NCBI GenBank assembly: GCA_018672055.1
Contig: JABHGM010000001.1
Span: forward strand, 8,884 to 72,883
Direction: 5' to 3'
DNA from: a bacterium
Lineage (GTDB): Bacteria; Patescibacteriota; Patescibacteriia; UBA1558; UBA10009
Length of the DNA: 64,000 bases
Shown here piece after piece: positions 14,285 to 38,207 of this stretch (the stretch's first letter is position 1; the number at the start of each line of letters is the position of its first letter). The notes beneath the pieces are model-generated. The model searched no databases and had not been told where the DNA came from. It saw nothing but the letters and a program-made list of their open reading frames with translations. The translations under genes were made by a program, and so were the position numbers.

Positions 14285-22248
<7,964 letters not shown>

Positions 22249-22259
<11 letters not shown>

Positions 22260-22833
22260 ATTTTCTTGAACTTACTGTTGTTTGAAAATGTGATGTATGT
22301 AATTTATCATTATCAATTATATTACTCTCTGTTTCTAAAACTATGGTTACTCTGGGTTGTAAATCATAAAAATAACCTGAACCTGCTTGCCAAGCAAAAG
22401 GATCTTTAATTGGTGAGATATAAAAATCTAAACGAGTTACTTTAATATCTGTAGGCGTAATATCTAACCACTCATCTGATACACAATTTACCGAGTTATA
22501 GCAAACCTGAACAGCGTCTCTACCTTCTGACAAAGCTTTTCTAAAAATAACTGGATTATTATTTTCATCAAGTAAAGCAAGCTCGTCTTCAGGTTCTGTT
22601 AAAGAAGTAGGATATGCTGAATAACTATAATCTACAGTACCCATTCTAAATTCACGAGCCATAACTTCTAAAACATACCTAGCATCAGAAATAGAACGTT
22701 GAATATTCGCAGTTCTTTTTTGAACTGTATTAGACTGAGTAAAAATAGATAAAGCATAAGTTGTAGCAATAGCAAAAATACCTAGTACTAAAACCATTTC
22801 CATCATACTAAAACCTTTTTTATTTCCAATCAT
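22249..22833 (-). CDS. Type IV minor pilin (PilW-like), prepilin-type N-terminus
   Basis: N-terminus MIGNKKG|FSMMEMVLVLGIFAIA: Gly cleavage site, Glu at +5, hydrophobic helix. Confidence 0.6.
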
Positions 22834-23419
22834 ACAATTTATCTACAATACTTAAATTATATGGCTTGTCTGCTTCAAACCAAGTTACTTCAGATTCAAG
22901 GTGATAACCTATCCAACTAACACCAACATGGTCACTACACCTATCACCCGGATCTAAAAGCACTTCAGTATCTATGGGATCTTGCCAACATATTTCCTGT
23001 AAAGTAACTAATCTTTTAAATGAGGTAAGGTCTCCTGAATTGTCATGATTAAATACATCTGAAGTATTATCAAAATATACCTGACAACTATCACATAAAC
23101 TTATAACTGAACTAATATCAGAAAATGACCAACTCTTAGTACTAGGATCAAATTCTGTAATTAAGCGATAATTTGTATCAAAATCACTTAAAAAACCCTG
23201 ATACCAATTATTACCAGCTAACCAATTTGAATCACGATGATTCCTTATTACTTCAATAGACTCACGAGCTAGATTAGCAGCTACTAACCTATCTTCAGAA
23301 CTATTTGAAGAAATTAAATTATGGGTAGTTAAAGAAAGTCCAGCAATAACCCCAGTAACAATAACTCCAAGAGCTACTATCATTTCAATAAAACCAAGAC
23401 CTTTTTCATTTTTAAACAT
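22820..23419 (-). CDS. Type IV minor pilin (PilV-like), prepilin-type N-terminus
   Basis: N-terminus MFKNEKG|LGFIEMIVALGVIV with Glu at +5; 'ANLARESIE' PilV-like segment. Confidence 0.6.
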   Translation of the reverse strand: MFKNEKGLGFIEMIVALGVIVTGVIAGLSLTTHNLISSNSSEDRLVAANLARESIEVIRNHRDSNWLAGNNWYQGFLSDFDTNYRLITEFDPSTKSWSFSDISSVISLCDSCQVYFDNTSDVFNHDNSGDLTSFKRLVTLQEICWQDPIDTEVLLDPGDRCSDHVGVSWIGYHLESEVTWFEADKPYNLSIVDKLYDWK

Positions 23420-23423
23420 ATTT

Positions 23424-23960
23424 TTATGGAATAGTTACTAATTCAGAATTAACTCGTCCAGTTACTCTATTTAAATTAATTACTGCTTTTTTACTTGTTA
23501 CACCATCATGCATTAAAGTAATTTCAGCACTTAAAGCAGCCGTAGATCCATTAATGTATATGACTGGTTTAGGTGGTTCAAATATAATATTTAAAGGGAG
23601 AGTATCAGTTGAAACCTCAGAAACAGTTACTCCTTCAGGGAGTATAATACTTCTAATCAACTCCTCAGGAGCATCAAATTCTTTATCGCTATCAGTATCT
23701 TTAAAGATAGCGTATGATCCAAAACCACTTATAAAAAAAAGACCATAATCAATACTTAAATCAGTATCTTCACCAATGCCAGCCAGAGCTTGAGTTTGAG
23801 CCTTACGAATCTCTGTAGCTACTTGATCAGCAACTAAACGTAATTCCTGTGTCCTTTCACCAGCCCTAAAATTAACAACAGTAACTGTAAAAATAATAAC
23901 AAAAATAACTATAACTGTAATTAATTCTATTAAACTGTAACCTTTTTGATTTATCTTCAT
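23424..23960 (-). CDS. Type IV minor pilin (FimT/GspH-like), prepilin-type N-terminus
   Basis: Probable true start at MKINQKG|YSLIELITVIVIFVII (Met7 of the tracked ORF 23424..23978). Class III signal with Glu+5. Overlaps the pilD stop. Confidence 0.6.
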   Translation of the reverse strand: MKINQKGYSLIELITVIVIFVIIFTVTVVNFRAGERTQELRLVADQVATEIRKAQTQALAGIGEDTDLSIDYGLFFISGFGSYAIFKDTDSDKEFDAPEELIRSIILPEGVTVSEVSTDTLPLNIIFEPPKPVIYINGSTAALSAEITLMHDGVTSKKAVINLNRVTGRVNSELVTIP

Positions 23961-24745
23961 AAATATCCTAAATACCAATTTAATATTTGAGTACCATATA
24001 AAAGAGAAATAACAGTAGCTAGAGTTAAGAAAGTACCAAATGGTAATTGGTCACCCCATTTTTTAAATTTAAATACTATTAAAAATATACTAATTACTGA
24101 ACCAACTATATAAGCAAGAAGCAAGGCTACTAAAGAATTAGGCCAACCCAGCATAGTACCCATTAAAAATCCTAAGCGTATATCTCCCCCACCAATCCAT
24201 TTACCTTTGGAGATAATGAACTGGAGCATAAAAAATCCAGATACAATTAAAGCAGCTAATAATAGATTGAAAATATTAAAACCTAAACTTAAATTAAAAA
24301 TTAGGGAGATAAATATAGCTGGAACAACTACTTTATCTAATATCAAATAATGTTTTAAATCATAAACAAATATTACAACTAAAAATGAACAAAATGTAAT
24401 ATATGAAAAGTATACTAATAGAATATTTAAAGGTATTTCAGAACAAATATTTAGTGGGCAGTATGAGCTTAGATAAAGGAAATAACCTAGAACAAATAAA
24501 ATAGCAGTACTTAGTTCTACTAATAAATACTGCCAAGATATTTTAACATTACAATATCTACATTTTCCTTTAAGAAATAAAAAACTAACCACAGGAATCA
24601 AATCCCTAGCTCCAAGCTTGTGATTACACGAAACGCATTTTGACCTACTAGTTATTAAGCTCTCTTTAGTCTTTAATCTATGTATTACAGCATTTAAGAA
24701 ACTACCAATTATTAGGCCAAGAATAAATACAAAAACTGCTATCAT
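23957..24745 (-). CDS. pilD: Prepilin peptidase (A24 family)
   Basis: N-terminal tetra-Cys Zn motif (CVSCNHKL...CRYCNVKI), multi-TM body, and 'GGGDIRLGFLMGTMLGW' catalytic-Asp region. Confidence 0.85.
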   Translation of the reverse strand: MIAVFVFILGLIIGSFLNAVIHRLKTKESLITSRSKCVSCNHKLGARDLIPVVSFLFLKGKCRYCNVKISWQYLLVELSTAILFVLGYFLYLSSYCPLNICSEIPLNILLVYFSYITFCSFLVVIFVYDLKHYLILDKVVVPAIFISLIFNLSLGFNIFNLLLAALIVSGFFMLQFIISKGKWIGGGDIRLGFLMGTMLGWPNSLVALLLAYIVGSVISIFLIVFKFKKWGDQLPFGTFLTLATVISLLYGTQILNWYLGYL

Positions 24746-24791
24746 ATATAGTAAATTTTACCATTTTTATAGCAGTTAAACAATACTAATA

Positions 24792-25331
24792 TTATAGTTT
24801 TCCAAGACATACCGCAGGTCCACCCGTAAGACTTCCGAGGCCAAGAATTATAATTCCACCACCTGTGTCATCATCGCATACTAATATTTGAACTGACTTA
24901 TCATTAGAAGTTACACAATTACTAGATAATGGATTCAAAACTGATATAGCTCCATCAATATCTCCTTGAATAGTTTTTTCTTGTTCTAATAAGGTGCCTG
25001 TTAAATACCTGTTACCATTCCTACAGTAGAAATAAAATCTTGAACTATCGGGATCATGCGGCATAGCTCCGCTAGCTAAATAACCAGTTAATTTATTAAT
25101 TCCAGAACCAACAGCTAAATCATCATAATCATCAGGTATTGCTGGAGGTACTCCATAATTAGCAATATGTATTTCAATAGCCTTATATAATGTACCAATA
25201 TCATTCATTCTATTTCCATCTCTTGCTTTTGCTCTAGTACTATTTAAGGTAATTAAAGAAATAGAAGAAATTAATGCAATAATAGAAATTACAACTAAAA
25301 GTTCAGTTAAAGTAAAGCCTTTTTTATTCAT
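24792..25331 (-). CDS. Type IV pilin (prepilin), paralog 4
   Basis: MNKKG|FTLTELLVVISIIALI class III signal peptide; Cys-containing C-terminal globular domain. Confidence 0.75.
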   Translation of the reverse strand: MNKKGFTLTELLVVISIIALISSISLITLNSTRAKARDGNRMNDIGTLYKAIEIHIANYGVPPAIPDDYDDLAVGSGINKLTGYLASGAMPHDPDSSRFYFYCRNGNRYLTGTLLEQEKTIQGDIDGAISVLNPLSSNCVTSNDKSVQILVCDDDTGGGIIILGLGSLTGGPAVCLGKL

Positions 25332-25390
25332 AAATCTATATATAGTCTAAATAAAAAAAATAATTTATTAAAAGACTAATTCTAAATAAA

Positions 25391-25867
25391 TTAGTTACAG
25401 TCAGTTATAACCCCCTGATTATTAATAGCATGTAAACCAGCACTATATTCGGTAGTTCCGCCCTCTAAATAAAAACACAGTTGATAATCATCAACTGTGG
25501 CTCCAGCAGAACCATCATTTTTACTAATTGAGTAATCACAAACATCAACAGATGTGGAATTACAGGCTCCAACACCAGTAATATCAAAAAATCTACTTAG
25601 ATCATCAGTTACAAAAGCAGGCCCTGTGCAGCTAGTAGTTAAGTCATATGCGCCATCACAACCTACCATAGTAGCGCCAGGTATAGTATTAGCACCTAAC
25701 TCCATAGTTATATACATTTGACTTATATCAGAAACACGTCTTGCATCACGACCTTTCTCACGACTACTAGTAAAAAGAATTGCTGCTGACGACATAAACA
25801 AAGCAATTATAGAAATTACTAATAATAATTCAGTTAAAGTAAAACCTTTTATATTTCTTAAATTCAT
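25391..25867 (-). CDS. Type IV pilin (prepilin), paralog 3
   Basis: ...NIKG|FTLTELLLVISIIAL prepilin signal; 'ARRVSDI' pilin-conserved N-terminal helix; C-terminal Cys pairs. Confidence 0.75.
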   Translation of the reverse strand: MNLRNIKGFTLTELLLVISIIALFMSSAAILFTSSREKGRDARRVSDISQMYITMELGANTIPGATMVGCDGAYDLTTSCTGPAFVTDDLSRFFDITGVGACNSTSVDVCDYSISKNDGSAGATVDDYQLCFYLEGGTTEYSAGLHAINNQGVITDCN

Positions 25868-25878
25868 TTATATTTCAA

Positions 25879-26361
25879 TTAAGGAGTATAAGAACAAGTA
25901 ATTGGCGAACTGGTAATAATACCACCAGGGCCTACATGATTAACTCCTGCAGCAATATTAGCTATACCTTCTTCTAAATAGAAACAGATTTCATAATCTG
26001 CTTCATCACTATCTAAACCTATTGAATAAGCACAGATAGCTTCAGAATTACCATTACAAGCACTAGTACCTGTAGGATCTGTTAAAGTACCCCAATTATA
26101 ACCAGCAAAATCTCCACAATCCGTTGTTAGATCACCTTCACTATTACAACCACCAGGAAAAATATCATAACCACCAGTTGCACTATTTGCAGCTTCCATT
26201 TCAATTAATAAAGAAAGTTGTTTAACATCTGATACACGTTTTGCATCACGAGCTTTTGCTCTAGCACCATTTAGAGACACAACAGCAATTGACGATAATA
26301 AACCAATAATGGCAATAACTACTAAAAGTTCAATTAAAGTAAAACCTTTTTTGTTTTGCAT
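25879..26361 (-). CDS. Type IV pilin (prepilin), paralog 2
   Basis: MQNKKG|FTLIELLVVIAIIGLL. The first ~60 aa are nearly identical to paralog 1 (also at the DNA level) and the C-terminus diverges. 7 Cys. Confidence 0.8.
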   Translation of the reverse strand: MQNKKGFTLIELLVVIAIIGLLSSIAVVSLNGARAKARDAKRVSDVKQLSLLIEMEAANSATGGYDIFPGGCNSEGDLTTDCGDFAGYNWGTLTDPTGTSACNGNSEAICAYSIGLDSDEADYEICFYLEEGIANIAAGVNHVGPGGIITSSPITCSYTP

Positions 26362-26392
26362 AGGATTTTTTAGTTAATATATATATGCATAT

Positions 26393-26401
26393 ATTATAAC
26401 A
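26393..26401 (-). promoter_or_regulatory. Extended -10 element (TGtTATAAT on the minus strand), ~32 nt upstream of the pilin paralog 2 start
   Basis: Plus-strand 'attataaca' is the reverse complement of TGTTATAAT. It lies immediately after the terminator of the upstream pilin gene. Confidence 0.4.
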
Positions 26402-26403
26402 TA

Positions 26404-26434
26404 AAAAGGTCTCGATTACGAGACCTTTTTATAT
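26404..26434 (-). terminator. Rho-independent terminator after pilin paralog 1
   Basis: Hairpin aaaaaggtctcg-atta-cgagacctttttat: 11-bp GC-containing stem, 4-nt loop, U-run on the minus-strand transcript (A-run/T-run on both sides). Confidence 0.75.
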
Positions 26435-26449
26435 CTATACAATCAAATA

Positions 26450-26938
26450 TTATATATCGTAAGTACATTCGGCAGTAATTACACCACCAGGACCAGCACT
26501 ATTAACCCCTTGAGCAACACCACCAATACCTTCTTCTAAGTAAAAACATATTTGATAATCACCTGTAGCTTCACCAACACCCATTGAATAAGCACAAGGT
26601 GCAGCAGTATCTGCCTGACAAGCAGCAGTGCCAGAAGGATCTAAAATAGTATTAAGATCAACCCCACCTAACAAATTAGCAGCAACGCCAGTACATGCGC
26701 TCATTAAATCACCTGCGTCCTCGCATACGGTAGGAAAAACATTATAACCACCAGTAGAACTATTAGCAGCTTCCATTTCTACTAAAGTACTAATTTGTTT
26801 AACATCTGATACACGTTTTGCATCACGAGCTTTTGCTCTAGCACCATTTAGAGATACTACAGCTAAAGTTGATAATAGACCAATAATGGCAATAACCACT
26901 AAAAGTTCTATTAATGTAAAACCTTTTTTGTTTTGCAT
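26450..26938 (-). CDS. Type IV pilin (prepilin), paralog 1; likely major pilin
   Basis: MQNKKG|FTLIELLVVIAIIGLL class III signal; Cys-rich C-terminal domain. First gene after the long intergenic region and followed by a strong terminator, consistent with a highly expressed major subunit. Confidence 0.8.
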   Translation of the reverse strand: MQNKKGFTLIELLVVIAIIGLLSTLAVVSLNGARAKARDAKRVSDVKQISTLVEMEAANSSTGGYNVFPTVCEDAGDLMSACTGVAANLLGGVDLNTILDPSGTAACQADTAAPCAYSMGVGEATGDYQICFYLEEGIGGVAQGVNSAGPGGVITAECTYDI

Positions 26939-27182: not shown

Positions 27183-28400
27183 CTAAAACTGATTAGCTAG
27201 GTTATACATTGGTAAAATAATAGATGCTACCATACCACCTACTGCTACACCAATTAAAACCATTATAAAAGGTTCAATTAAATGAGTCATATTAGCTACC
27301 ATATTCTCAATTTCTCTTGAATAAAAATCACTCACCTTATTTAATATATTATCTAAACGACCAGTTTTTTCACCAACCGCTAGCATGTTTGAAACAAGTT
27401 TAGGTACAATATCTGAGCGTAAAAATACCACAGCTACGCTATTCCCATCTTCCACCTCTTTAATAGTCTCTTCAATCAATTCCCTATATGCCATATTACC
27501 AACTACCTCAGAAACAATTTCTAAAGCTCTAGCAAGAGGTACCCCGCCTACTACCAAGGTAGATAAAGAACGAGTGAAACGAACTAAATAAATCATTTTA
27601 AATAGATTGCCAAAAATTGGTATTTTTAATTTAAAAGCATCCCATATAGATCTGCCTCTGGTCGTAGAAAGTAACCACTTAGTACCAAATATAATCCCAG
27701 CAATAACAATTATTAAAGCCCACCAATACTGCCTCATAACATGAGAAGAACCAATTAATACTTTAGTTGTAAAAGGTAGTTCAGAACCAGAAGCTGTAAG
27801 CATTGAAGTTAGTTGAGGAATCACAAAAATCATCATAGCGACACCGACAACAACTAAACCTGACATAATGAAAATAGGATAAATCATAGCTCCCTTAATC
27901 TTTGAAGTTAAATCATAATCCTTTTCTTCTTGATCAGCTAAGTACTCTAATACTTCATCTAATTTACCAGATGTTTCTCCTGACTTAATCATAGAAGCAA
28001 AGAACTCAGAAAAAACTTTAGGATATTTAGCAAGTGAGCCAGATAATTTAACACCATTCTCTACTTCGTCTGCTATATCTGATATTATTTCTTTAAAATG
28101 TTCACTTTCTGTTTGTTGAACAATAATTCTTAAAGATTGAACAACAGGTACATTAGCACTAATCATTACAGCTAGTTGACGTGCAAAAATTACAACTTCT
28201 TTTCTTTTAATTTTTCCTTTTAAAAAAGTAAAAGTAAAACCTTTTTCAGAATCATATTCAACCCTAGACACTTCTTCAATAGAAATTATAGCGATTCCTC
28301 TATCAATTAAAATATCGGCTGCTGTATTTTCGTCAGCAGCCTCAACAATACCTTGAAATATTTGTCCTGAAGGCTTCCTAGCCTTGTAATTATATTTCAT
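27183..28400 (-). CDS. pilC: Type IV pilus platform protein PilC (GspF family)
   Basis: 405 aa, two GspF repeats, three TM segments, conserved 'KYPKVFSEFF...IKSGETSG' and 'GEKTGRLD'-type motifs. Confidence 0.85.
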   Translation of the reverse strand: MKYNYKARKPSGQIFQGIVEAADENTAADILIDRGIAIISIEEVSRVEYDSEKGFTFTFLKGKIKRKEVVIFARQLAVMISANVPVVQSLRIIVQQTESEHFKEIISDIADEVENGVKLSGSLAKYPKVFSEFFASMIKSGETSGKLDEVLEYLADQEEKDYDLTSKIKGAMIYPIFIMSGLVVVGVAMMIFVIPQLTSMLTASGSELPFTTKVLIGSSHVMRQYWWALIIVIAGIIFGTKWLLSTTRGRSIWDAFKLKIPIFGNLFKMIYLVRFTRSLSTLVVGGVPLARALEIVSEVVGNMAYRELIEETIKEVEDGNSVAVVFLRSDIVPKLVSNMLAVGEKTGRLDNILNKVSDFYSREIENMVANMTHLIEPFIMVLIGVAVGGMVASIILPMYNLANQF

Positions 28401-28402
28401 AA

Positions 28403-29473
28403 TTATCTAAATAGCTTAGCAATAGTTTTGGGATCAGTAGCATACTTTGCAGCTTCTTGCTGATCAATACGCCCCATTCTAACAAGTTCTGCAAGTGACA
28501 TATCCATACTTATCATACCTTGAGCTCTGGATGTCTGAATTATACTTTCTAAATTTGCAAACCTACCATCTTTAATTAATGACTTACCAGAATCAGAAGA
28601 AGTAAGTATTTCTACAGCTAATGCTTGATCACCTTTAACATCTGGTATTAATTTCTGAGCAATAATACCTACTAAATACTTAGCTAATACATCACGTACC
28701 CATTTTTTCTTAGCTTCAGGGAAATCTGAAACTATTCCTTGAATACAAGAAATAACAGTATCATAATTCATAATAACTAATACTAAACGTCCTGATTCAG
28801 CCATTTCTAAAAGAGCTTCTAATGTTTTTAAATTATCAACTTCAGATAATACAACAACATTTATATCCTGATCACTTATACTTACTAAACCTTCAGTAAA
28901 TGAATTAACATCATTACCTATTTCTCTTTGTTCAATAAAACTCTGATCATTAATAAATAGATGTTCAATAGGTTTTTCTAAAAGCAATATTCTTTCTTTT
29001 CTACTTTTATTTATTTCATCAATAATAGCAGCTAACGTAGTGCTTCTACCCGAATTAAAAGCACCAGTAACAATTATCAAACCGCTGCTAGCTCTAGAAA
29101 AAGAACTAATTACTTTAGGTACACCTAGTTTTTCTAAAGATAATATTTGTCCTGTAATTAATTTTAAAGACACACTATGGCTACCCTTCTGTTTAAAAAT
29201 ATGTACCTTAAAACGAGCTTTATCTTTCCAAGGAAAAACAAATTTAATTTCTTTACGCTTTTTTAATAATTCTAATTGTTCAGCTGGTACAAAATACTTG
29301 ATGAGAGCATCTAAAAATTCTTTATTAACAACAGCAACATCAGGTAGTGACACTAACTTACCATTTACTCTAATAAATGGATTACTACCTATGTCGAAAT
29401 GAATATCTGTTGCTCTCCTCTCGGCTACGCTATTCAATATTTGATTAATAGTTGTTTCTACGGTTGTAGTCAT
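28403..29473 (-). CDS. PilT-like retraction-ATPase homolog with degenerate catalytic motifs (probable pseudo-ATPase)
   Basis: Collinear with PilT across its full length, but every catalytic motif is altered. Walker A GPTGSGKST -> GAFNSGRST. Asp box EDPIE -> EKPIE. Walker B region DPDIILVGEMRD -> DQDINVVVLSEVDN. His box GHLVFGTLHT -> GRLVLVIMNY. Confidence 0.75.
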   Translation of the reverse strand: MTTTVETTINQILNSVAERRATDIHFDIGSNPFIRVNGKLVSLPDVAVVNKEFLDALIKYFVPAEQLELLKKRKEIKFVFPWKDKARFKVHIFKQKGSHSVSLKLITGQILSLEKLGVPKVISSFSRASSGLIIVTGAFNSGRSTTLAAIIDEINKSRKERILLLEKPIEHLFINDQSFIEQREIGNDVNSFTEGLVSISDQDINVVVLSEVDNLKTLEALLEMAESGRLVLVIMNYDTVISCIQGIVSDFPEAKKKWVRDVLAKYLVGIIAQKLIPDVKGDQALAVEILTSSDSGKSLIKDGRFANLESIIQTSRAQGMISMDMSLAELVRMGRIDQQEAAKYATDPKTIAKLFR

Positions 29474-29518: not shown

Positions 29519-29893
29519 TTAAAAATTTTCTAAAACTTTTTTTATTTTAATAATTACTTCACTTGGTACAAAATGAGCTTTAATTAAAAAATCTTTAGCT
29601 CCAAGATCTAAACATTTATCTATATCTTCTTTTTGACTTAAATTTGATAATACAATAACTGGTATATTCATATTTTCACTTTTAAGCTTTTCTAAAAATT
29701 CAAAACCATTTAATTTAGGCAGAAGTAGATCAAGTAATATTAAATCTGGTTTTTTCTCTTTTATTATTCTTAATGCCTTTTCTCCATCAGATGCCAAAAT
29801 TACCTTATAACCTTCTATTTCTAGCTTAGAGCTATACATCTGTATTAAAAAGCTATCATCTTCTACAATTAAAATTTTATGATTATTAACCAT
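29519..29893 (-). CDS. Stand-alone response-regulator receiver (CheY/PilH-like)
   Basis: ILIVEDD...PDLILLDLLLP (phospho-acceptor Asp)...LSNLSQ...K; 124 aa with no output domain. Confidence 0.8.
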   Translation of the reverse strand: MVNNHKILIVEDDSFLIQMYSSKLEIEGYKVILASDGEKALRIIKEKKPDLILLDLLLPKLNGFEFLEKLKSENMNIPVIVLSNLSQKEDIDKCLDLGAKDFLIKAHFVPSEVIIKIKKVLENF

Positions 29894-29897
29894 TTAA

Positions 29898-31649
29898 TTA
29901 TTCTTCTTGCTTAGTTACTCTCAAAATTTCTTCAACAGTAGTTAAACCTAAGATTGCCTTCATCCATCCATCTTGAATAATATTAACAAAATTTTGTTTA
30001 ATTAACTCTTCCCTTACTTCTTTACCATTAAAGCCTTGAGCAATGATTTCTCTCATTCTAGTATTAATAATTATCATCTCAGCTATAGCAAGTCTTCCTT
30101 TATAGCCTGTGCCTCCACATTGACTACATCCTTCTCCCTTATGGAATTGAAAGTTACTATTTTCTTTAACTCCTTTATACCAAGCTTTTTCAGGTAATTC
30201 TGCTAAATCCTTTTTAACTTCAACTAAAACTTCTGGTGGAACTTCTTCTTTAACTTTACAATTTTCACAAATACGACGTATTAATCTTTGAGAAATTATT
30301 AAATTAAGAGTAGAAGCAAGTAAAAAAGCTTCTGCACCCATATCAATAAAACGAGGTACAGCACCAACAGCATCATTAGTATGCAAAGTAGTTAAAACAG
30401 AATGACCAGTTAAAGCAGCATGAATTGCTAATCTGGCAGTTTCTTTATCACGAATCTCACCAACCATAATAATATCTGGATCTTGTCTAAGTAGTGCTCT
30501 TAAACCAGCTACAAATGAAAAGCCTAATTCACTTCTTACTTGTGACTGATTAATGCCCTCAATATGATATTCAACAGGATCTTCTAAGGTAGAAATATTT
30601 ACACCATCTTTATTTAATTTAAATAATGCAGAGAATAAGGTAGTAGATTTACCAGAACCAGTAGGACCAGTAACTAAAAACATTCCATTTGGCTTTTTTA
30701 AATTCTTTTCCATCTTTTCAAGAGCATTACCAAAAAAACCTAACTCTTCGAATGTAGGTGCCTTATCTGGTGATTCTAAAACTCTAAGAACTACTTTTTC
30801 TTGAGTAATAAGAGGTATTAAAGAAACACGGAAATCAACATCTTTCTCGCCTACAGTAAGTCTAATACGTCCATCTTGAGGAATACGTGTTTCATCTATT
30901 TTTAAGTTAGAAATAACTTTAATACGAGAAACTAAAGCTGCATGAACATAGATAGGTAAAACAATTGAAGTATGTAAAATACCATCAATCCTGTATCTTA
31001 CTCTACTCTTATCTCCTTGTGGCTCTATATGTATATCTGAAGCACCGCCTTCAATAGCATGACGTAAAATAACGGAAACTATCTTAGAAACAGGAGCACT
31101 TTTAACAACTTGCTCAAGAGGTGTGGCATCACTAATGCTGGTACCAGATTTAGGAGCTAATTTTTCTTCAGCGAAATCTAAAGCTTTACCAACCTGCTCC
31201 TTAATACTTTCATAACCCTTGGCTGCGTTTTGAAAACTATCTGGAGATATGACAAAATATTTTACTTTTAAATTCTTTTTACGAGCCAAAAATTCAATAG
31301 CATCAATAGCTTTAAAATCTGAAGGATCTACTAAACCAACATCTAAATTATTACCTTCTTTATTAAAAACTATTACTTTGTAATTACGTGATAAATCTTG
31401 AGGGATAACTTTAAGAGCTTCTTCTTTAATTTTTTTGCCTTCCAAAAACTCATAAGGCATATTTAAAATCTGACCCTTTATCTTAGCTATAACTTCTGTA
31501 TTAGCAATAGCTGATCCATTTAAAAGTTTACTAAACTTTTCAGGATTAGCTTTTATCATTTTTAAATATTGCTTATACTCTTCAGGACTAATTGAATCTT
31601 GAGTCTTTAAAGCATCTAATAATTGTTTTTGTAATGATTTTTTTAACAT
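29898..31649 (-). CDS. pilB: Type IV pilus assembly ATPase PilB (GspE family)
   Basis: Intact Walker A GPTGSGKSTT, Asp box EDPVEY, Walker B DPDIIMVGEIRD, His box GHSVLTTLHTN, C-terminal tetra-Cys (CENCK...CSQCGGTGYKGR); 583 aa. Confidence 0.9.
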   Translation of the reverse strand: MLKKSLQKQLLDALKTQDSISPEEYKQYLKMIKANPEKFSKLLNGSAIANTEVIAKIKGQILNMPYEFLEGKKIKEEALKVIPQDLSRNYKVIVFNKEGNNLDVGLVDPSDFKAIDAIEFLARKKNLKVKYFVISPDSFQNAAKGYESIKEQVGKALDFAEEKLAPKSGTSISDATPLEQVVKSAPVSKIVSVILRHAIEGGASDIHIEPQGDKSRVRYRIDGILHTSIVLPIYVHAALVSRIKVISNLKIDETRIPQDGRIRLTVGEKDVDFRVSLIPLITQEKVVLRVLESPDKAPTFEELGFFGNALEKMEKNLKKPNGMFLVTGPTGSGKSTTLFSALFKLNKDGVNISTLEDPVEYHIEGINQSQVRSELGFSFVAGLRALLRQDPDIIMVGEIRDKETARLAIHAALTGHSVLTTLHTNDAVGAVPRFIDMGAEAFLLASTLNLIISQRLIRRICENCKVKEEVPPEVLVEVKKDLAELPEKAWYKGVKENSNFQFHKGEGCSQCGGTGYKGRLAIAEMIIINTRMREIIAQGFNGKEVREELIKQNFVNIIQDGWMKAILGLTTVEEILRVTKQEE

Positions 31650-31654
31650 AAAAT

Positions 31655-31987
31655 TTACTGTCTACCTTCTAATAAAAGATCTATAGGTGCAGGCGGAGCT
31701 TCAAACGGATTCTCTTTACCTACCCTACCTAGTTCTAAAGGTAACTTAACAAATGATCTAAGAGATTGATAAACAGAGTTAGAAAAAATATTATTATCAA
31801 ATGAGCTTATTGTATTATTAATCTTTTCAATTGAAACAGCATATTTACTACTCATTAAACCAAAATCTGATCCAAAATCTGAGTTAGATGAATTATTTGA
31901 AAAATAAATTAAAGTATAGCTAATAATACCAAATATAATAATAACTAGTACAATATTTTTTACTTTTGTATTACTTTTTTTAGCCAT
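31655..31987 (-). CDS. Small membrane-anchored protein occupying the pilP position
   Basis: 110 aa with a single N-terminal TM, between the pilO-like gene and pilB. No recognisable domain. Confidence 0.45.
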   Translation of the reverse strand: MAKKSNTKVKNIVLVIIIFGIISYTLIYFSNNSSNSDFGSDFGLMSSKYAVSIEKINNTISSFDNNIFSNSVYQSLRSFVKLPLELGRVGKENPFEAPPAPIDLLLEGRQ

Positions 31988-31988
31988 A

Positions 31989-32642
31989 TTATGGTATGTA
32001 AAAATATGTTCTAAGAGCTAAAGAATATCCAGACATGTCAGTACCTCCTGCAAAACTTAAAGCCATAACATCCATCAAACGTAAATGTCTTTCAATATTA
32101 GCTAATAGTCCTTTTAATTTAAAATAATCCCCTCCTTGTACACTTAAAGTAATGTCCAAATAATGAATACCTGATGCAAATTGATCGTATTCGTCATCTT
32201 TAAAATCAAAATCATCTTCGTCTTCGTCTGCGCTAAGTAAAGACCCTTCAGCAATATCAATAAATGACAAAGAAAAACCACTGGATAAAGTAACTGCTTC
32301 AAGCTGAGCCATTAAATTAGGTACTTCCGCCTCTGATGGCAAAACTTCATTTAACTTATTAATATTACTAAGTTGTTTATCTTTAAATTCTGATACTGTA
32401 GTATCTAAATTTTTTAAATTATTATAGTAAGTTTCTAATTCACGTAATTCTTGTTCTTTTTGTTCTAGTAAACCACCTTTTTTTTGATTTATTGATTCTA
32501 TTTTAGGAATTAATACAATTAGAACCATCATAATGACTACTATAACAAAAGTAATATATTTTGAAATATTAAAATACTTATTTAATAAAAAGTTAATTTT
32601 ATTTATTTTCTTAACTTGTTTTTTTCTATCTTCTAAAGGCAT
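31989..32642 (-). CDS. PilO-like pilus assembly protein
   Basis: N-terminal TM followed by a coiled-coil region (QKKGGLLEQKEQELRELETYYNNLKNL), then a periplasmic-type domain. Gene order is pilM-pilN-pilO. Confidence 0.55.
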   Translation of the reverse strand: MPLEDRKKQVKKINKINFLLNKYFNISKYITFVIVVIMMVLIVLIPKIESINQKKGGLLEQKEQELRELETYYNNLKNLDTTVSEFKDKQLSNINKLNEVLPSEAEVPNLMAQLEAVTLSSGFSLSFIDIAEGSLLSADEDEDDFDFKDDEYDQFASGIHYLDITLSVQGGDYFKLKGLLANIERHLRLMDVMALSFAGGTDMSGYSLALRTYFYIP

Positions 32643-32644
32643 AA

Positions 32645-33565
32645 TTAAAATGAATAAAAAACATCTCCTACTAATTCCAAAGAAATATTAAATGATATTG
32701 TACCCCCTATATTATTACCAGCAGCAGCACTTATTTCTACTAAAGCTATTTCGGGAGAATCTTGGAAAACTTTATACTGTCTAGCAACATTAGTATAACT
32801 ATCAGTATTAGCAGACAAAGCAACTATCCCGTCAGCTGATGCAGAGACATTAGAATAATAGACATCATCAATAGTAATTTTTTCTAAAACTGCAAAAACT
32901 TTAGTCCAATAAATATGAACTTTAAGTAAAGCATCGACTATTTCTAACTTTTTACCTATTATTTCTGCCTCTTGTTTTGTTTCTTCAAATTCAGCTAAAA
33001 CTTTTTCTCCTTCTTCAACATTAGTAATTATTTTATCTCCCTGCTTCTCTATAGCTGTGCCATAGACTGTTAAACCAATATAGAAAATAATAGTTAAAAT
33101 TAAACCAGCTATTGCATATAAACCAAGAGAAATATATATTTTTTTATTTGGTATTAAATATGTGCCTTCAGGAATTAAATTAACATCTAGTTCTTCTAAA
33201 ACTGGTTCTTCATGTAATATACCTTCAGTTACTTTAGGCAAGCTACTTGATATATTATTTTTTATAACATTCTGAGTTGGTTCATCAATTACTTTACGTT
33301 TCTTTTTAAATAATGATTTAAAAAAACTTGGCTTATTACTTACCCTCTTCTGTTTTTTAGTTAACGGTCTTTCTTCAATCTTAAACTCTGGTACCACGAT
33401 ATCTTCAATTGGTTTTGGCTGTGAAGGAGCAGGTGTCTTTACTTCTTGTTTTTCAGGTACATGAAATTCAACAGGAGCTTCTTTTTTAAGAGCTTGTTTA
33501 AATTTCTCTTCATCTTTTCTTAATTCATCAGGTAAAAGATTTATATTGTCTAAATCATCAGCCAT
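32645..33565 (-). CDS. PilN-like pilus assembly protein with a long K/E-rich N-terminal extension
   Basis: TM helix (LGLYAIAGLILTIIFYIGLTVYG) followed by a PilN-type region; sits directly after pilM. Confidence 0.55.
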   Translation of the reverse strand: MADDLDNINLLPDELRKDEEKFKQALKKEAPVEFHVPEKQEVKTPAPSQPKPIEDIVVPEFKIEERPLTKKQKRVSNKPSFFKSLFKKKRKVIDEPTQNVIKNNISSSLPKVTEGILHEEPVLEELDVNLIPEGTYLIPNKKIYISLGLYAIAGLILTIIFYIGLTVYGTAIEKQGDKIITNVEEGEKVLAEFEETKQEAEIIGKKLEIVDALLKVHIYWTKVFAVLEKITIDDVYYSNVSASADGIVALSANTDSYTNVARQYKVFQDSPEIALVEISAAAGNNIGGTISFNISLELVGDVFYSF

Positions 33566-33573
33566 CTTTTTAT

Positions 33574-34761
33574 TTATATATCTCGCATAGCAAGGCCAAT
33601 AGCTACAGCTAAACGAGTGCCTACTTCATCTAAAACTGGTTTTAATTCTTCAGGATAAACTACTCTATCCCAAGGATTACCAATAATAGTTGGTTTATTA
33701 AATATCTCTGTAAAATAATCAGATAGGTTAGGTAAAAAAGCACTACCACCAGATAATACTATTTTCTCAACACTTGAATTTCCTTGATTTTGATATAGGT
33801 CGAAAACATATTTAACTTCATTAACAATTGGACTCAAACTATCAGTTATAACCTTAGGAATACCCTTGCCCTGAACATTAACGCCCATACTTATACCAAT
33901 ATCTCGTTTAAACTGCTCTGCTCTCTCAGGAGTAACATTTAAACTCTTACTTATTGCTTGAGTTATAGTATAGCCACCAACATCAATAGATCTATTTAAA
34001 ATAGGTACGCCTTTTTCAATAATACAAATATCAGTTGTTATAGAACCAACATCTATAATAGTAACAGTGGCTTCATCTACGCCCATTAAAGACCTAGATA
34101 AAGCAAAAGCTTCTGTTTCTAAACTAATTAATCTAAGCCCTGCTTTTTTAAATATATCAATATATCTATTTACTAAATTCTTAGGAGCAGCTGTTACTAA
34201 AATTCTTAATTGTTTTGGAGATTTACCTTTAAAAGTTTCAGGACCATCCTTTTTAATATCTTTCTTATCAACTTCTTTTTCTTTCTCTTTTTCATCACTT
34301 TTAGTCTCTTTCTTTTTAAAGAAAGAAAAACCTTTTTTAGAATCATCTTTTTTAGTATCTTTATCAGAAGCCTCGCCAGTAATGATTTTCCAATCCAAAA
34401 TCATTTCATCCATAGGTAATGGTACATATTTTTTAGCTTCCCATTTAACAGCTGAAGCTAAATCCTTAGTAGGCATTTTAGGCAAGGTAATAATTGAATT
34501 AAAAACAGAAAATGTAGGTAAAGCAGCTATAGCATTAGTAGAAGTAGCACCTGATGATTCAACTAATTTTTTTAAAGACTGAATTATCTTTTGCTGAGCT
34601 TGAGGTGTAGTAGAACGTATAATATCAGTAGCAATATCAATATAGCCATAGGTAACAAGCCTAGGTTTTCCACCTTCATTTTTAAGTTCAACTAGTTTTA
34701 TACTAGCTGTACCCACATCTATACCTAGATATCCAGTTTTTGAACCACCAAAAATAGCCAT
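33574..34761 (-). CDS. pilM: Type IV pilus assembly protein PilM (actin-like ATPase fold)
   Basis: N-terminal 'YLGIDVGTASIKLVELK' and C-terminal 'IVLSGGSAFLPNLSDYF' actin-fold motifs. Contains a K/D/E-rich low-complexity insertion. Confidence 0.85.
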   Translation of the reverse strand: MAIFGGSKTGYLGIDVGTASIKLVELKNEGGKPRLVTYGYIDIATDIIRSTTPQAQQKIIQSLKKLVESSGATSTNAIAALPTFSVFNSIITLPKMPTKDLASAVKWEAKKYVPLPMDEMILDWKIITGEASDKDTKKDDSKKGFSFFKKKETKSDEKEKEKEVDKKDIKKDGPETFKGKSPKQLRILVTAAPKNLVNRYIDIFKKAGLRLISLETEAFALSRSLMGVDEATVTIIDVGSITTDICIIEKGVPILNRSIDVGGYTITQAISKSLNVTPERAEQFKRDIGISMGVNVQGKGIPKVITDSLSPIVNEVKYVFDLYQNQGNSSVEKIVLSGGSAFLPNLSDYFTEIFNKPTIIGNPWDRVVYPEELKPVLDEVGTRLAVAIGLAMRDI

Positions 34762-34908: not shown

Positions 34909-37338
34909 TTATTCAACAATAGTTGAAGCCATAGCTTCACGCCAAACAGGTAATCCCCCAGCCACATTGTCCATGCCAGGAGGTGTATTAACTATAACTC
35001 TACCATCATATATTATTATTTCAGCAGGTTCATTTTCCTCAATATAGTTTCTTTGTAATAAAATTTCATGAGCCATTACTAAACCACTTATTGTTAACTG
35101 TCTAGTATTAGAAGTATCATCACCTGTATAAAATTTACCTTTTAATCCAGAACCATTATCTAAAACTATAAAATTACCAACTATATTAGATACTGAAGGC
35201 GAAATAGTTACATTACCACCTTTTATTATCCAAGTAAGTGAAGCTAAATTTTCAATTTGTGAAGCAACCGAAGCTTCTTCATAAAACATATCTGAATTAA
35301 TTACTAAATCACCGTTTATTATAACTGTACCAGCTCCAGATGAATTAGTACCACGCGCATTATAAAAGGTTAATGGATTATCTATAGTATAGGTTGTTTG
35401 TCCTGTAAAATTATATACCTTATTACCCAACGTAGTATAACCAGACAAAGCATTATCAACATCATCTGAAGTAAAATCAACTTGATCATAACTATTAGCT
35501 ATTCTATTAAAATTAATTAATCCAGGTATAGTCCAATACTGATTACTAACTGTAGGTAAATCAAAATCAGCATATCCTGATTCTGAACAACCACTTTCAG
35601 TACTAAAATTAACAATATCACCTCCTATACCAGTTCTAATACAATAGCTAGCATTAAACCTAGTGTCAGGAGCTCCAAAAGAACCAGAACTACCTAAACC
35701 GCTCTTACCATAAACTAATCCATATTTAGACTCAAGCCATGGAGAACTTAAGTTACCATAAAATTTTAACCAACCAAGTCCCCTGTCTGCTGTACCATCA
35801 TTAAAACCATTCCAAGCTTCACCAGTTAATGATCCAGCACCATCTAAACTAGTACAATGATAAGGATTCTGACACATAGATAGCCAACCATCATCAGCAC
35901 CAAAAACGATTACATGACCCCAACCAGTTAATTCATAATTCTGACTATCATAAACAATAGGGACCGAACCGCTTGGCGGATTAATATATCCTTCATCTAC
36001 ACAAGTTGAACCAAAACAAATCCAACCAATATTACTATCCCAGGCCCAGCCATAAATACTATTACCATCTTTAGTTAAACCGTAATCAGGCGGACATAGG
36101 CTAAAATATGTACCATAGTAAATATTATCACAATTTAATGAAGCCCAGCCATAATTATAGCTCCAAGCCCAGCCATAGATACCACTTGGTAAATCACCCG
36201 AATTAACTGTTGCCGAAAAATCATCAGTTGCATTTAAAGTGTCTCGTACCCATAGTTTAGCAATTTGCGTACTAGTAGAACTATAATTAAATGTTTGAGT
36301 ATAAGCAGCGGGAGTCCAATCTATCTCCCACGGCTCACCACTATTATCAAAATCCCAACGGTATTCTAATTCATTCCTAGTATCTTCATAATCTGAAGAA
36401 CAAGCTCCGTTAAAAGTAAATAATTGTTCAGTATCATCAGAATTTAAGGGATCTACAGAAAAACATGCTTGAGGAGCATAGTTCTCTTGCCAATCTATAC
36501 GTAATTGAAAAACATGAGGTGACAAAGAAGTGTCTGTAGTCGACATCTGAACTTTCCAATATAATTTATCATCACTTGTATTAAAAACAATATTTACAGG
36601 ACTAGGAACATCCCCTGCTCCAAAGGTTAACCATTCACCAAGTCCAGGACCATACCAAGTACTACCATCATTAGAAAATTGATATCTTATGGTTTCACCT
36701 AAATCATCATGAACAGGTTGAACAGTTATTTCAGTAATAATACTATTAGTTTCTAACACTAAAATATCATCAGAAGTTATTTCACCAGATGTTTGATAAA
36801 CACCACCAACATCAGATAATCTTAAATGTGCTAAAGTATCATCCCAAACCATATTTGAGGCAGAGCCAAGATCATCTCTATCAGTAAAATCTTCTAAATA
36901 ATAATGAGCTAATGGATTATTTATTCTATGACTTAAAGCTAGAGTAGCTGTATAATATTCACTATACTCATCAAGACCATGAACAGAACGAGTCCTAAAT
37001 AAAAGAGTAGGCGCATATGGATGTGAGGTTGACCAATAATAATGTCTATTAAATGGAGATGAAGAAGTATAAAAAGCATCAATATCATTCCAAGTATCTC
37101 CTCCATTATTTGAATATTCTATTTCAAAATCAGTGAAATTAAGAGGTTTCCCAATTACTGTAAATTCAATAAATGAATCATATGGATCATCAGAACCACC
37201 GTTTTGCCAAATATCATCACCTCCTACAAAAGAAACAATTGGTGCAGTAATTGCTTTAACAGGTAACTGAAATACAAAAAAACTGCTTATTATCAATAAT
37301 AAGCAAGTTAAAAAAAGTATTTTTTTATTAAATTTCAC
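34909..37338 (-). CDS. Secreted 809-aa protein with repeated aromatic 'GWAW..N.GW' motifs
   Basis: Signal peptide (MKFNKKILFLTCLLLIISSFFVFQLPVKA). Repeats IYGWAWSYNYGWASLNC / IYGWAWDSNIGWICFG / TGWGHVIVFGADDGWLSM / GEAWNGF..GLGWLKF. Confidence 0.7.
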   Translation of the reverse strand: MKFNKKILFLTCLLLIISSFFVFQLPVKAITAPIVSFVGGDDIWQNGGSDDPYDSFIEFTVIGKPLNFTDFEIEYSNNGGDTWNDIDAFYTSSSPFNRHYYWSTSHPYAPTLLFRTRSVHGLDEYSEYYTATLALSHRINNPLAHYYLEDFTDRDDLGSASNMVWDDTLAHLRLSDVGGVYQTSGEITSDDILVLETNSIITEITVQPVHDDLGETIRYQFSNDGSTWYGPGLGEWLTFGAGDVPSPVNIVFNTSDDKLYWKVQMSTTDTSLSPHVFQLRIDWQENYAPQACFSVDPLNSDDTEQLFTFNGACSSDYEDTRNELEYRWDFDNSGEPWEIDWTPAAYTQTFNYSSTSTQIAKLWVRDTLNATDDFSATVNSGDLPSGIYGWAWSYNYGWASLNCDNIYYGTYFSLCPPDYGLTKDGNSIYGWAWDSNIGWICFGSTCVDEGYINPPSGSVPIVYDSQNYELTGWGHVIVFGADDGWLSMCQNPYHCTSLDGAGSLTGEAWNGFNDGTADRGLGWLKFYGNLSSPWLESKYGLVYGKSGLGSSGSFGAPDTRFNASYCIRTGIGGDIVNFSTESGCSESGYADFDLPTVSNQYWTIPGLINFNRIANSYDQVDFTSDDVDNALSGYTTLGNKVYNFTGQTTYTIDNPLTFYNARGTNSSGAGTVIINGDLVINSDMFYEEASVASQIENLASLTWIIKGGNVTISPSVSNIVGNFIVLDNGSGLKGKFYTGDDTSNTRQLTISGLVMAHEILLQRNYIEENEPAEIIIYDGRVIVNTPPGMDNVAGGLPVWREAMASTIVE

Positions 37339-37352
37339 TTATCTATTATAAA

Positions 37353-38207
37353 TTATAAAGTTATAATATTTTCTACATCACCAAGTAATTGTAATATAGC
37401 ATTATTTACATTAGTTCGGATAACATCTAAATCACTTTGATAACTCTGTAAAGTACTAAGAGAAACATTAGAACTTAAATCTAAACGAGTAATAGCTGTT
37501 AACTGAGTATCAATCTCTATAATATAAGCATCAAAAGAAGATTGTTCTGATTCCATATTACTAATACTACCATCTAAACTTCCTTTTAAAGTCTTGTCAT
37601 CATCTAAGTATATTACATTACATTCACTGGTACACCATACATCATTAGGATCATCACATTCTTCACTCTTATCAACTATTGAATCACCACAAACAGTTTT
37701 AGGATCTCCTTTAGCAGCGTAAGCAATAGGAATTAAACTTAAACTATTCTGATAACTTGAAGCTCTTGTATGACCAATAACATAATCAAAAGTTTCATTA
37801 ATTAAAGTGTATGAATCTTGTATATTACTAACTATTTGATTAGCATCATAATGATAATTAGTAGATTGAATTAGAGCAACATGCGTAGTAGTAACATCAG
37901 TACTATTAATTAAATCAAATAAAGCTGATTCGCTAGTTGAATTACTAATAGCAGTAAGTAATGGAGTTAATTGATTATCTTGATAGGCTTGCCAATCAGC
38001 AATTAAATCATCTTGGATCTGAGTATTAATATTATCATAACTATTAATTGTTGAATTAATAGCAGTATTTGTAGAATCAATCTTATTTTGAACTCTATCA
38101 GAGTACAAAGTTTTACACTCTGTTAAATTAACACAAGCTGCTTTAGAAGAGCTAGTTACTAAAATTAGAGCTATGAAGATAAAGGATAAGAATATTATTT
38201 TTTTCAT
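37353..38207 (-). CDS. Secreted protein with a Myxococcus-type cysteine-rich repeat
   Basis: Signal peptide. 'CGDSIVDKSEECDDPNDVWCTSECNV' matches the CG[DN]G.V[DE]..EECDDGN...C..C cysteine-rich repeat pattern. Confidence 0.65.
   Translation of the reverse strand: MKKIIFLSFIFIALILVTSSSKAACVNLTECKTLYSDRVQNKIDSTNTAINSTINSYDNINTQIQDDLIADWQAYQDNQLTPLLTAISNSTSESALFDLINSTDVTTTHVALIQSTNYHYDANQIVSNIQDSYTLINETFDYVIGHTRASSYQNSLSLIPIAYAAKGDPKTVCGDSIVDKSEECDDPNDVWCTSECNVIYLDDDKTLKGSLDGSISNMESEQSSFDAYIIEIDTQLTAITRLDLSSNVSLSTLQSYQSDLDVIRTNVNNAILQLLGDVENIITL

Follow-up and report, generated by a model that had tools for sequence, protein, structure and literature searches.

The best described relatives of the protein discussed here are the PilT retraction ATPases of type IVa pili, members of a family of PilT-like ATPases in which both Walker motifs (A and B), the catalytic glutamate, a pair of arginine fingers and one glutamate of the Asp box are completely conserved (McCallum et al., PMC5424180). 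The same work assigns magnesium coordination to the Asp-box glutamate, nucleotide sensing to the arginine fingers, and both a gamma-phosphate contact and inter-chain cooperativity to the second histidine of the His box (PMC5424180). Here we analyze a gene for a 356-residue PilT-like protein of an ultra-small bacterium of the Patescibacteria, encoded on the minus strand of a 64,000-nucleotide stretch of contig JABHGM010000001.1 (positions 8,884 to 72,883; assembly GCA_018672055.1), which we refer to as the window. The protein retains the PilT fold, its gene occupies the pilT slot of a type IVa pilus operon, and its active site is rebuilt in a manner shared by a large group of Patescibacteria homologues, all of which points to a protein that probably is no longer a retraction motor.

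Several described members of the family are instructive for comparison. Geobacter and Myxococcus encode PilT paralogues, that is, additional PilT-family members with specialised roles, which, unlike the window protein, keep Walker A and B along with the Asp box and the His box (PMC5065972; PMC13584747). PilU belongs to the same family as the window protein (TIGR01420) and has the same fold but retains all four catalytic motifs (PMC13584747); of the PilT-type AIRNLIRE helix, the window protein preserves a part. In Vibrio cholerae, Walker A and Walker B mutants of PilT still support retraction, since PilU depends on the PilT protein, and piliation is changed by an ATP-locked PilT (PMC6821130), so that an ATPase-defective PilT ring can serve as a structural or adaptor partner at the pilus base, much as might be the case here. 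These mutants, however, were engineered and PilU acts as the motor, whereas in Patescibacteria the inactive-looking state has arisen in nature, is old and is conserved, and the window shows no PilU. The closest precedent is PilT1 of Bdellovibrio bacteriovorus (Bd1510), which is encoded within an operon of the order pilB-pilT1-pilC, has no Walker A motif that can be recognised and was proposed by the authors to have a regulatory role instead of serving as a motor; deletion of pilT1 partly relieved the biofilm-predation defect of pilT2 (PMC4237445). The likeness between this operonic PilT homologue without Walker A and the window protein is one of description, not of sequence, and Bdellovibrio, a member of another phylum, has a canonical orphan PilT2, whereas no partner of this kind is known for the window organism. 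Together, the Vibrio and Bdellovibrio precedents make a non-catalytic role for a PilT credible. A literature search with partial journal coverage found no paper that pairs PilT with a pseudo-ATPase or a degenerate Walker motif, and none on a degenerate group of Patescibacteria PilTs; Bdellovibrio PilT1 was the sole analogue found.

The gene in question is the following.

28403..29473, minus strand: gene for the putative PilT-like pseudo-ATPase, 356 residues, assigned by its open reading frame (ORF), PF00437, the PDB match, TIGR01420, an AlphaFold2 model and Foldseek.

The 356-codon frame is intact. Against PF00437, the T2SSE superfamily, the protein scores 59.7 bits over residues 4-333, above the gathering cutoff of 24.9, and its best phmmer match in the PDB is Aquifex PilT (2ewv_A, E=3e-59, query residues 6-356), with no gaps in the alignment across all four motifs; Thermus PilT2, Geobacter PilT4 and Pseudomonas aeruginosa PilT are also matched, and the scores fall off further for PilU, DotB, GspE and PilB. 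The AlphaFold2 model, built with 69 homologues as input, has a predicted local distance difference test (pLDDT) score of 91.4 and a predicted template modelling (pTM) score of 0.86. In Foldseek comparisons, the model matches Geobacter metallireducens PilT4 with template modelling (TM) scores of 0.87-0.90 over 348 columns, P. aeruginosa PilT with 0.81-0.85, and PilU with 0.77-0.79 at 26% identity, so that the two-domain fold of PilT and PilU (an N-terminal PAS-like and a C-terminal RecA-like domain) is present at full length. The window protein thus shares with canonical PilTs of known structure (3jvu/3jvv; PilT4 6ojx; 2ewv) the two-domain fold (TM 0.81-0.90), 30-35% sequence identity and the same place between pilB and pilC in the core operon of the type IVa pilus. 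Its best NCBIfam family is pilT_fam (TIGR01420), at 285.4 bits and hence below the cutoff of 319.1; a canonical Patescibacteria PilT (P0103) reaches 453.6 bits. Because it falls short of this cutoff and lacks the Walker A lysine, the histidines of the His box and the arginine fingers, we do not class the protein as a PilT motor. Pfam matches to thymidine kinase and STAND NTPase remained under their own cutoffs and reflect generic P-loop similarity, and a 120-residue ORF on the opposite strand (29040-29402), which lies wholly within the PilT-like gene, has no support; both were set aside.

The substituted sites were located by aligning 319 PilT-type proteins, with positions numbered as in P. 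aeruginosa PilT, the sequence of which was verified as identical to 3jvu_A. The residues of the window protein and their coordinates are as follows.

29039..29065, minus strand: Walker A-like P-loop GAFNSGRST, residues 137-145; K136 is replaced by R143, T132 by Phe and G133 by Asn.
28964..28978, minus strand: Asp box EKPIE, residues 166-170; D160 is replaced by K167, and the magnesium-binding glutamate E170, equivalent to E163, is kept.
28832..28873, minus strand: Walker B region DQDINVVVLSEVDN, residues 201-214; E211, equivalent to the catalytic glutamate E204, is kept.
28763..28792, minus strand: His-box region GRLVLVIMNY, residues 228-237; H222 is replaced by R229, H229 by N236 and T230 by Tyr.
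29207..29209, minus strand: first arginine-finger position, K89 in place of R82 (alignment and translation).
29162..29164, minus strand: second arginine-finger position, K104 in place of R97 (alignment and translation).
28568..28591, minus strand: helix SGKSLIKD, residues 295-302, equivalent to AIRNLIRE and partly kept.

Compared with canonical PilT, the window protein therefore carries K136R, D160K, H222R, H229N, R206D, R82K, R97K and T132F. The P-loop reads GxxxxG[R]ST, with both scaffold glycines (G137 and G142) in place but with Arg143 where the Walker A consensus GxxxxGK[ST] has its invariant lysine; neither histidine of the two-histidine His box is present (R229, N236), and both arginine fingers are lysines. 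Further changes in the Walker B region and pore loop 1 are G203 to Ser, R206 to Asp and D207 to Asn. What remains in common with canonical PilT comprises the P-loop scaffold, the Asp-box glutamates, the QRE motif and part of the AIRNLIRE helix, of which only the L-I-[KR]-[ED] half is recognisable. The correspondence between the PilB residues described by McCallum and colleagues (PMC5424180) and the PilT numbering is one that we infer; the spacings match (15 residues between the two arginines, 18 between the glutamate and the histidine, and 7 between the two histidines).

An earlier, sequence-only reading of this gene had described a PilT-like protein with every catalytic element substituted. 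Its four quoted motif strings are exact by translation, the full-length relationship to PilT is borne out by the PDB, TIGR01420 and fold comparisons, and the alignment to the verified P. aeruginosa sequence places the substitutions that it listed on catalytic positions, including the change of EDPIE to EKPIE in the Asp box and the loss of both histidines from the His box. The statement was too sweeping in one respect: K136, D160, H222 and H229 are indeed replaced, but the glutamates E170 and E211 are present. Likewise, in Walker A, the replacement of lysine by arginine stands, but the glycines are not lost, only the middle one having become Asn. Conversely, that reading had missed the lysines at both arginine-finger positions as well as the changes at R206, G203 and T132. 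Its remark that PilB, two genes away, keeps all its motifs is also correct, the strings having been checked by translation.

The degenerate protein is not an isolated case. Among its best 120 homologues (down to 37% identity), two are canonical (P0103 and P0115), one is a fragment, and the remaining full-length proteins carry the signature GP[FY]xSG[RK][ST]T / E[KREQ]PIE / SG[RK]LV...M[DN], the last element of which was used as [ML][DNE] when delimiting the group. So defined, the degenerate group includes 167 Patescibacteria homologues, and the window protein (P0001) lies inside the cluster in a neighbor-joining tree. About 50 degenerate loci come from GTDB species-representative genomes and almost all have the order pilB, response regulator, degenerate pilT, pilC; by record title, they belong to Komeili-, Kerfeld-, Buchanan-, Nomura-, Kuenen- and Jacksonbacteria, to 'Parcubacteria' and to unnamed Patescibacteria. 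In the scan of GTDB genomes, the best among the matches listed was 52% identical and came from a Komeilibacteria metagenome-assembled genome; 80 loci were kept, and no assembly among these had a degenerate locus together with a canonical one. Canonical PilTs with the motifs GPTGHGKST / EDPIE / GEMRD / TGHLVFxTLHTN occupy the same operon slot in Saccharibacteria, Yanofsky-, Yonath- and Adlerbacteria, as do the closest canonical relatives, P0103 and P0115. The Walker boxes of Saccharibacteria PilT have been reported as conserved, which agrees with the canonical type seen at the Saccharibacteria loci here.

In the neighbor-joining tree, which was built after removing the motif columns, the 167 degenerate proteins form one clade beside the canonical Patescibacteria PilTs, a placement which suggests that the degeneration occurred independently of that in Bdellovibrio PilT1. 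The degenerate branches are longer, with a root-to-tip distance of 1.50 vs 1.11 and a mean pairwise distance of 1.05 vs 0.61. The gene evolves under clear constraint. Estimated against two relatives (79% and 76% protein identity), the PilT-like gene has a ratio of nonsynonymous to synonymous substitution rates (dN/dS) of 0.13-0.16; the values are 0.11 for PilB, 0.10-0.12 for PilC and 0.10-0.13 for the response regulator. The identical protein is found on 73 contigs, the longest of 963,283 bp, and is listed in 136 blocks of the collection, with identical neighbors. The PilT-like gene thus represents conserved degeneracy under purifying selection, not decay. The sequence-only reading had asked which of these two applies and whether the region might be an assembly artefact; the former question is settled by the recurrence of the same substitutions in 167 homologues together with the dN/dS values, and the latter by the identical protein and synteny on the 73 contigs. 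Its treatment of the degeneracy as a peculiarity of one gene does not hold, since a large Patescibacteria group shares it in the canonical pilT slot.

Some homologues show variations that deserve mention on their own account. A subgroup of the degenerate proteins (L030:10001-12139, L012:10001-12143, L010 and L014) retains the Walker A lysine, with the pattern GSFGSGKTT...SGRLVIxNxEAD, and is encoded outside pilus operons; it includes P0074, a member of the degenerate group that passes the TIGR01420 cutoff (326.4 vs 319.1 bits). In L030, the gene of this lysine type lies between those for peptidyl-tRNA hydrolase and a PilM homologue (PF11104, 8e-40), with Der GTPase and Mfd flanking, so that the PilT-like/PilM pair is embedded among housekeeping genes. 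In L086 (L086:12352-14407; GCA_900089805.1; PilT-like protein 79% identical), the closest of the relatives that have a long contig, two transposase genes (rve and Transposase_mut) follow pilC where the window has pilins and pilD, and the operon is interrupted. In a Komeilibacteria metagenome-assembled genome (L006:5930-7684), two neighboring ORFs of 333 and 251 residues together make up the pilB beside the degenerate PilT; a stop codon, a frameshift or an error in sequencing could account for the split. Finally, many third-party-assembly records titled 'uncultured Gammaproteobacteria bacterium' (L007, L013-L015, L017, L021, L027, L029, L031 and others) contain the Patescibacteria-type order of pilB, response regulator, degenerate pilT and pilC; these titles look unreliable, given that the proteins group with those of Patescibacteria.

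The pattern of constraint within the group is informative about what has been kept. As reference, we took the 93 sites at which 149 canonical PilTs are invariant to at least 95% and compared them with the 167 degenerate proteins. Of these sites, 43 are retained, including the fold core, G130, G135, E159, P161, E163, the Q175-R176-E177 motif and D181; 17 are partly held or swapped for another conserved residue; and 33 are relaxed, with clusters at 204-211 (the catalytic glutamate and pore loop 1) and 227-245 (the His box and the stretch after it) in addition to R82, R194 and R239. The P-loop scaffold is close to invariant (G130 in 99%, G135 in 98%, Ser or Thr at 137 in 98%), and position 136, which is Lys in 100% of canonical PilTs, is Arg in 80% and Lys in 19%. 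The swapped sites include T132 (Phe or Tyr in 92%), T220 (Ser in 79%), G203 (Ser in 62%) and H222 (Arg or Lys in 88%, specifically Arg 74% and Lys 14%); position 229 is Asp in 42%, Asn in 28% and Glu in 13%. The arginine fingers, each Arg in 100% of canonical proteins, are divided between Arg and Lys (56% and 41% at position 82, 65% and 30% at position 97). In the AIRNLIRE helix, I293 is kept in 90%, Lys or Arg at 294 in 79%, and Glu or Asp at 295 in 87%. The position of the catalytic glutamate, 204, is Glu in 43%, Lys in 14%, Arg in 8% and Ala in 8%, with Lys or Arg predominating in the window protein's sister group (P0004-P0037); R206 is kept in 1% of the degenerate homologues.

Positions 160 and 204 vary in a coupled manner. 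D160 is present in 100% of canonical PilTs, and Lys, Arg or Glu takes its place in the degenerate group. The charges at 160 and 204 are positive and negative, respectively, in 63 of the 167 proteins, negative and positive in 29, and positive at both in only 1; a basic residue at 204 with a non-basic one at 160 recurs across several separate lineages. This complementarity suggests that the former acidic cluster that held magnesium and water is now an internal salt bridge; for the window protein, the covariation suggests a Lys167-Glu211 bridge and, likewise, the contacts of Arg229. Overall, the site pattern indicates that the degenerate proteins keep the residues that hold nucleotide and magnesium and have abandoned those that split ATP and couple this to movement.

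Taken together, the full-length fold, the purifying selection, the occupied pilT slot and the rebuilt active site shared by the group lead to the reading that the protein is a non-motor ring. We consider it reasonably probable that it is a PilT-derived pseudo-ATPase which binds nucleotide, hydrolyzes little or none of it and sits as such a ring at the PilC/PilM platform; the loss of ATPase activity is what we infer from the substituted residues. The proposed scheme is as follows. The PilT-like protein would still bind nucleotide, assemble as a ring and dock at PilC/PilM, with ATP turnover and the power stroke lost or nearly lost, the acidic magnesium/water cluster neutralised by the Lys167-Glu211 pair, and Arg229 taking over from the gamma-phosphate histidines. 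Most likely, such a ring would vie with PilB for a place at the base of the pilus machinery and act as a nucleotide-gated clutch, brake or latch that ends extension, after which the pilus would undergo only slow, unpowered retraction or would be held in place; the neighboring CheY-like regulator could plausibly serve as an input to the ring. Of this scheme, the clutch role in particular is the least secure step.

The pseudo-ATPase interpretation had been put forward in the sequence-only reading; it gains support at the level of the family, from the purifying selection, the 167 homologues and the relaxed catalytic sites, and is tempered by the retention of E163, E204 and a basic P-loop residue. 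Several points weigh against it. The window protein keeps E211, E170 and the basic residue of the P-loop, so that slow hydrolysis is possible, and the strong conservation of the P-loop implies that the ligand site matters. The conserved swaps, Arg for His222 and Lys for the arginine fingers, could in principle substitute functionally for the original residues, and a partner ATPase may be encoded in another part of the genome, which spans about 963 kb. Furthermore, strict monophyly of the degenerate group was recovered in 45 of 100 neighbor-joining bootstraps, for which reason we do not claim a single origin, although one is weakly indicated.

These considerations bear on the alternatives. We regard as unlikely the possibility that the protein is a rewired but working retraction ATPase, in which Arg143, Arg229, the Lys89 and Lys104 fingers and the chemistry of E170 and E211 would do the work of the canonical residues. 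In P-loop NTPases, replacement of the Walker A lysine by arginine generally leaves binding intact and cripples hydrolysis, which counts against such an enzyme, even if the residue at 136 is basic in 99% of the degenerate homologues and the next one is Ser or Thr in 98%. The equivalents of E163 and E204 are present in the window protein and its two closest relatives, but the catalytic glutamate is Glu in fewer than half of the group and basic in the nearest sister group. The replacements are conserved, not random, and the protein that fills the pilT slot is as strongly constrained as PilB and PilC; R206 and pore loop 1, however, are unconstrained, a drift that an enzyme dependent on them would not tolerate. 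Moreover, the Walker A lysine and both arginine fingers, which are changed here, are invariant across the family (PMC5424180), and K136 and E204 have been described as needed for ATP binding and hydrolysis by PilT (PMC6821130).

Quite improbable, too, is the scenario in which the protein is itself inactive and serves as an adaptor, recruiting a second, competent ATPase of the PilT/PilU type encoded elsewhere in the genome. The scenario has direct precedents, since retraction by PilU needs the PilT protein to be present, even if that PilT is ATPase-defective, as in the V. cholerae K136A variant (PMC6821130; PMC6762196), and the Bdellovibrio layout, an operonic degenerate PilT1 with an orphan canonical PilT2, matches it; yet PilB and the PilT-like protein are the only T2SSE-family ORFs in the 64-kb window, and no second ORF of this family lies within 10 kb of any of about 50 degenerate loci. 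An orphan PilT-like gene with an intact Walker A lysine, located beside a pilM copy, does occur in other Patescibacteria genomes, but this orphan type, too, lacks the His box and D160. No canonical PilT from this genome is among the 120 best of 8000 candidate relatives of a canonical Patescibacteria PilT, a result that is uninformative, and no orphan-type copy from this genome is among the 120 best of 8000 candidates for the orphan lysine type, which is weak evidence against such a copy. The reading as a pseudogene in decay, or as an error of sequencing or assembly, which the degenerate motifs and the low T2SSE score relative to PilB (59.7 vs 413 bits) might suggest, is refuted by the intact frame, the stop codon of which lies 3 nt from the pilC start, by the identical protein on many contigs, the low dN/dS, the full-length homologues with the same signature at identities as low as 37%, and the confident fold prediction.

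The non-motor ring would operate within an otherwise complete pilus machine. The window, which has a low GC content (about 0.27-0.36), holds a complete type IVa pilus operon of the Gram-positive style on the minus strand, in the order pilM, pilN-like, pilO-like, a 110-residue ORF, pilB, a CheY-like gene, the PilT-like gene, pilC, four pilins, pilD and four minor-pilin-like genes.

33574-34761, minus strand: pilM (PilM_2 Pfam match on the identical locus L001).
32645-33565, minus strand: pilN-like, by position only.
31989-32642, minus strand: pilO-like, by position only.
31655-31987, minus strand: 110-residue ORF between the pilO-like gene and pilB, with no Pfam match.
29898..31649, minus strand: PilB extension ATPase (PF00437, 413 bits, plus MshEN; all motifs intact).
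29519..29893, minus strand: single-domain CheY-like response regulator (PF00072, 95.5 bits), between pilB and the PilT-like gene.
27183..28400, minus strand: PilC platform protein (T2SSF, 210.8 bits, in two stretches), starting 3 nt past the PilT-like stop.
24792-26938, minus strand: four pilin genes (N_methyl matches on the identical locus L001).
23957-24745, minus strand: prepilin peptidase PilD (Peptidase_A24 match on the identical locus L001).
21471-23978, minus strand: four minor-pilin-like genes, within the pilin/pilD block at 21471..26938.

PilB, encoded by the second gene upstream of the PilT-like gene with the CheY-like gene in between, has the motifs GPTGSGKST, EDPVE, DPDIIMVGEIRD and GHSVLTTLHT as well as two CxxC motifs, and KGFTLxE N-terminal motifs are visible in translations of the pilin block. 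In the CheY-like protein, the phospho-acceptor aspartate (equivalent to D57) and the equivalents of T/S87, Y/F106 and K109 are intact, as they are in 54 aligned sequences. This gene is present in most of the degenerate loci and also in some canonical Patescibacteria loci; it was rejected as a marker of the degenerate type given that it lies between pilB and a canonical pilT in L028, L033, L047, L062, L065, L067, L074 and L076.

Upstream of pilM, two ORFs on the minus strand, of 809 residues (34909-37338) and 284 residues (37353-38207), have no Pfam match; the relative L086 has ORFs of similar sizes at the positions of these two and of the 110-residue ORF. Three tandem, paralogous giant ORFs of 1786, 1781 and 1733 residues (window 3601-19486, minus strand) lie immediately downstream of the pilus operon and of a gene for DNA ligase (19483-21468). 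The first and the second are 37% identical over about 1,490 residues, and each is 25-27% identical to the third. The 1786- and 1781-residue ORFs each carry a DUF2341 at the N-terminus and, in addition, six stretches of Laminin_G_3 (concanavalin-like lectin), and the third has DUF2341 and Laminin_G_3 matches in the L001 record; these proteins are candidates for host adhesion linked to the pilus. GC skew follows the coding strand in the window, being -0.15 to -0.32 where the genes are on the minus strand (1-40 kb and 52-62 kb) and near zero or slightly positive over most of 40-52 kb, where they are mostly on the plus strand.

Host attachment, DNA uptake and movement in Patescibacteria are considered to depend centrally on type IV pili. 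Genome papers on these bacteria list PilT as the retraction or twitching ATPase, without mention of degeneracy (PMC11809585, PMC6744442, PMC5220378). If many lineages carry a PilT that is incapable of motor function, inferences of twitching, forceful retraction and competence from gene presence would need to be revisited there. Because Saccharibacteria PilT is canonical, the cultured Saccharibacteria models would not be representative of those lineages with respect to PilT, and because some members of the degenerate group, such as P0074, pass the NCBI PilT/PilU cutoff, public annotation hides the degenerate type.

A broader proposition, which we put forward only tentatively and which may well prove wrong, is that in a large part of Patescibacteria, this organism included, the sole PilT is a nucleotide-binding, non-hydrolyzing ring that functions as a CheY-controlled clutch or latch, with no retraction motor. 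If this is true, the type IV pili of these episymbionts would work without a retraction motor, retraction being unpowered or carried out by PilB alone, and the clutch or latch would decide whether the pilus is held out as a host tether or slid back for DNA uptake; the type IVa machine would then contain a 'motor-dead' part produced by natural evolution. The degenerate group offers a natural experiment on the roles of the PilT ring beyond ATP hydrolysis, a question raised by the work on PilT and PilU in V. cholerae.

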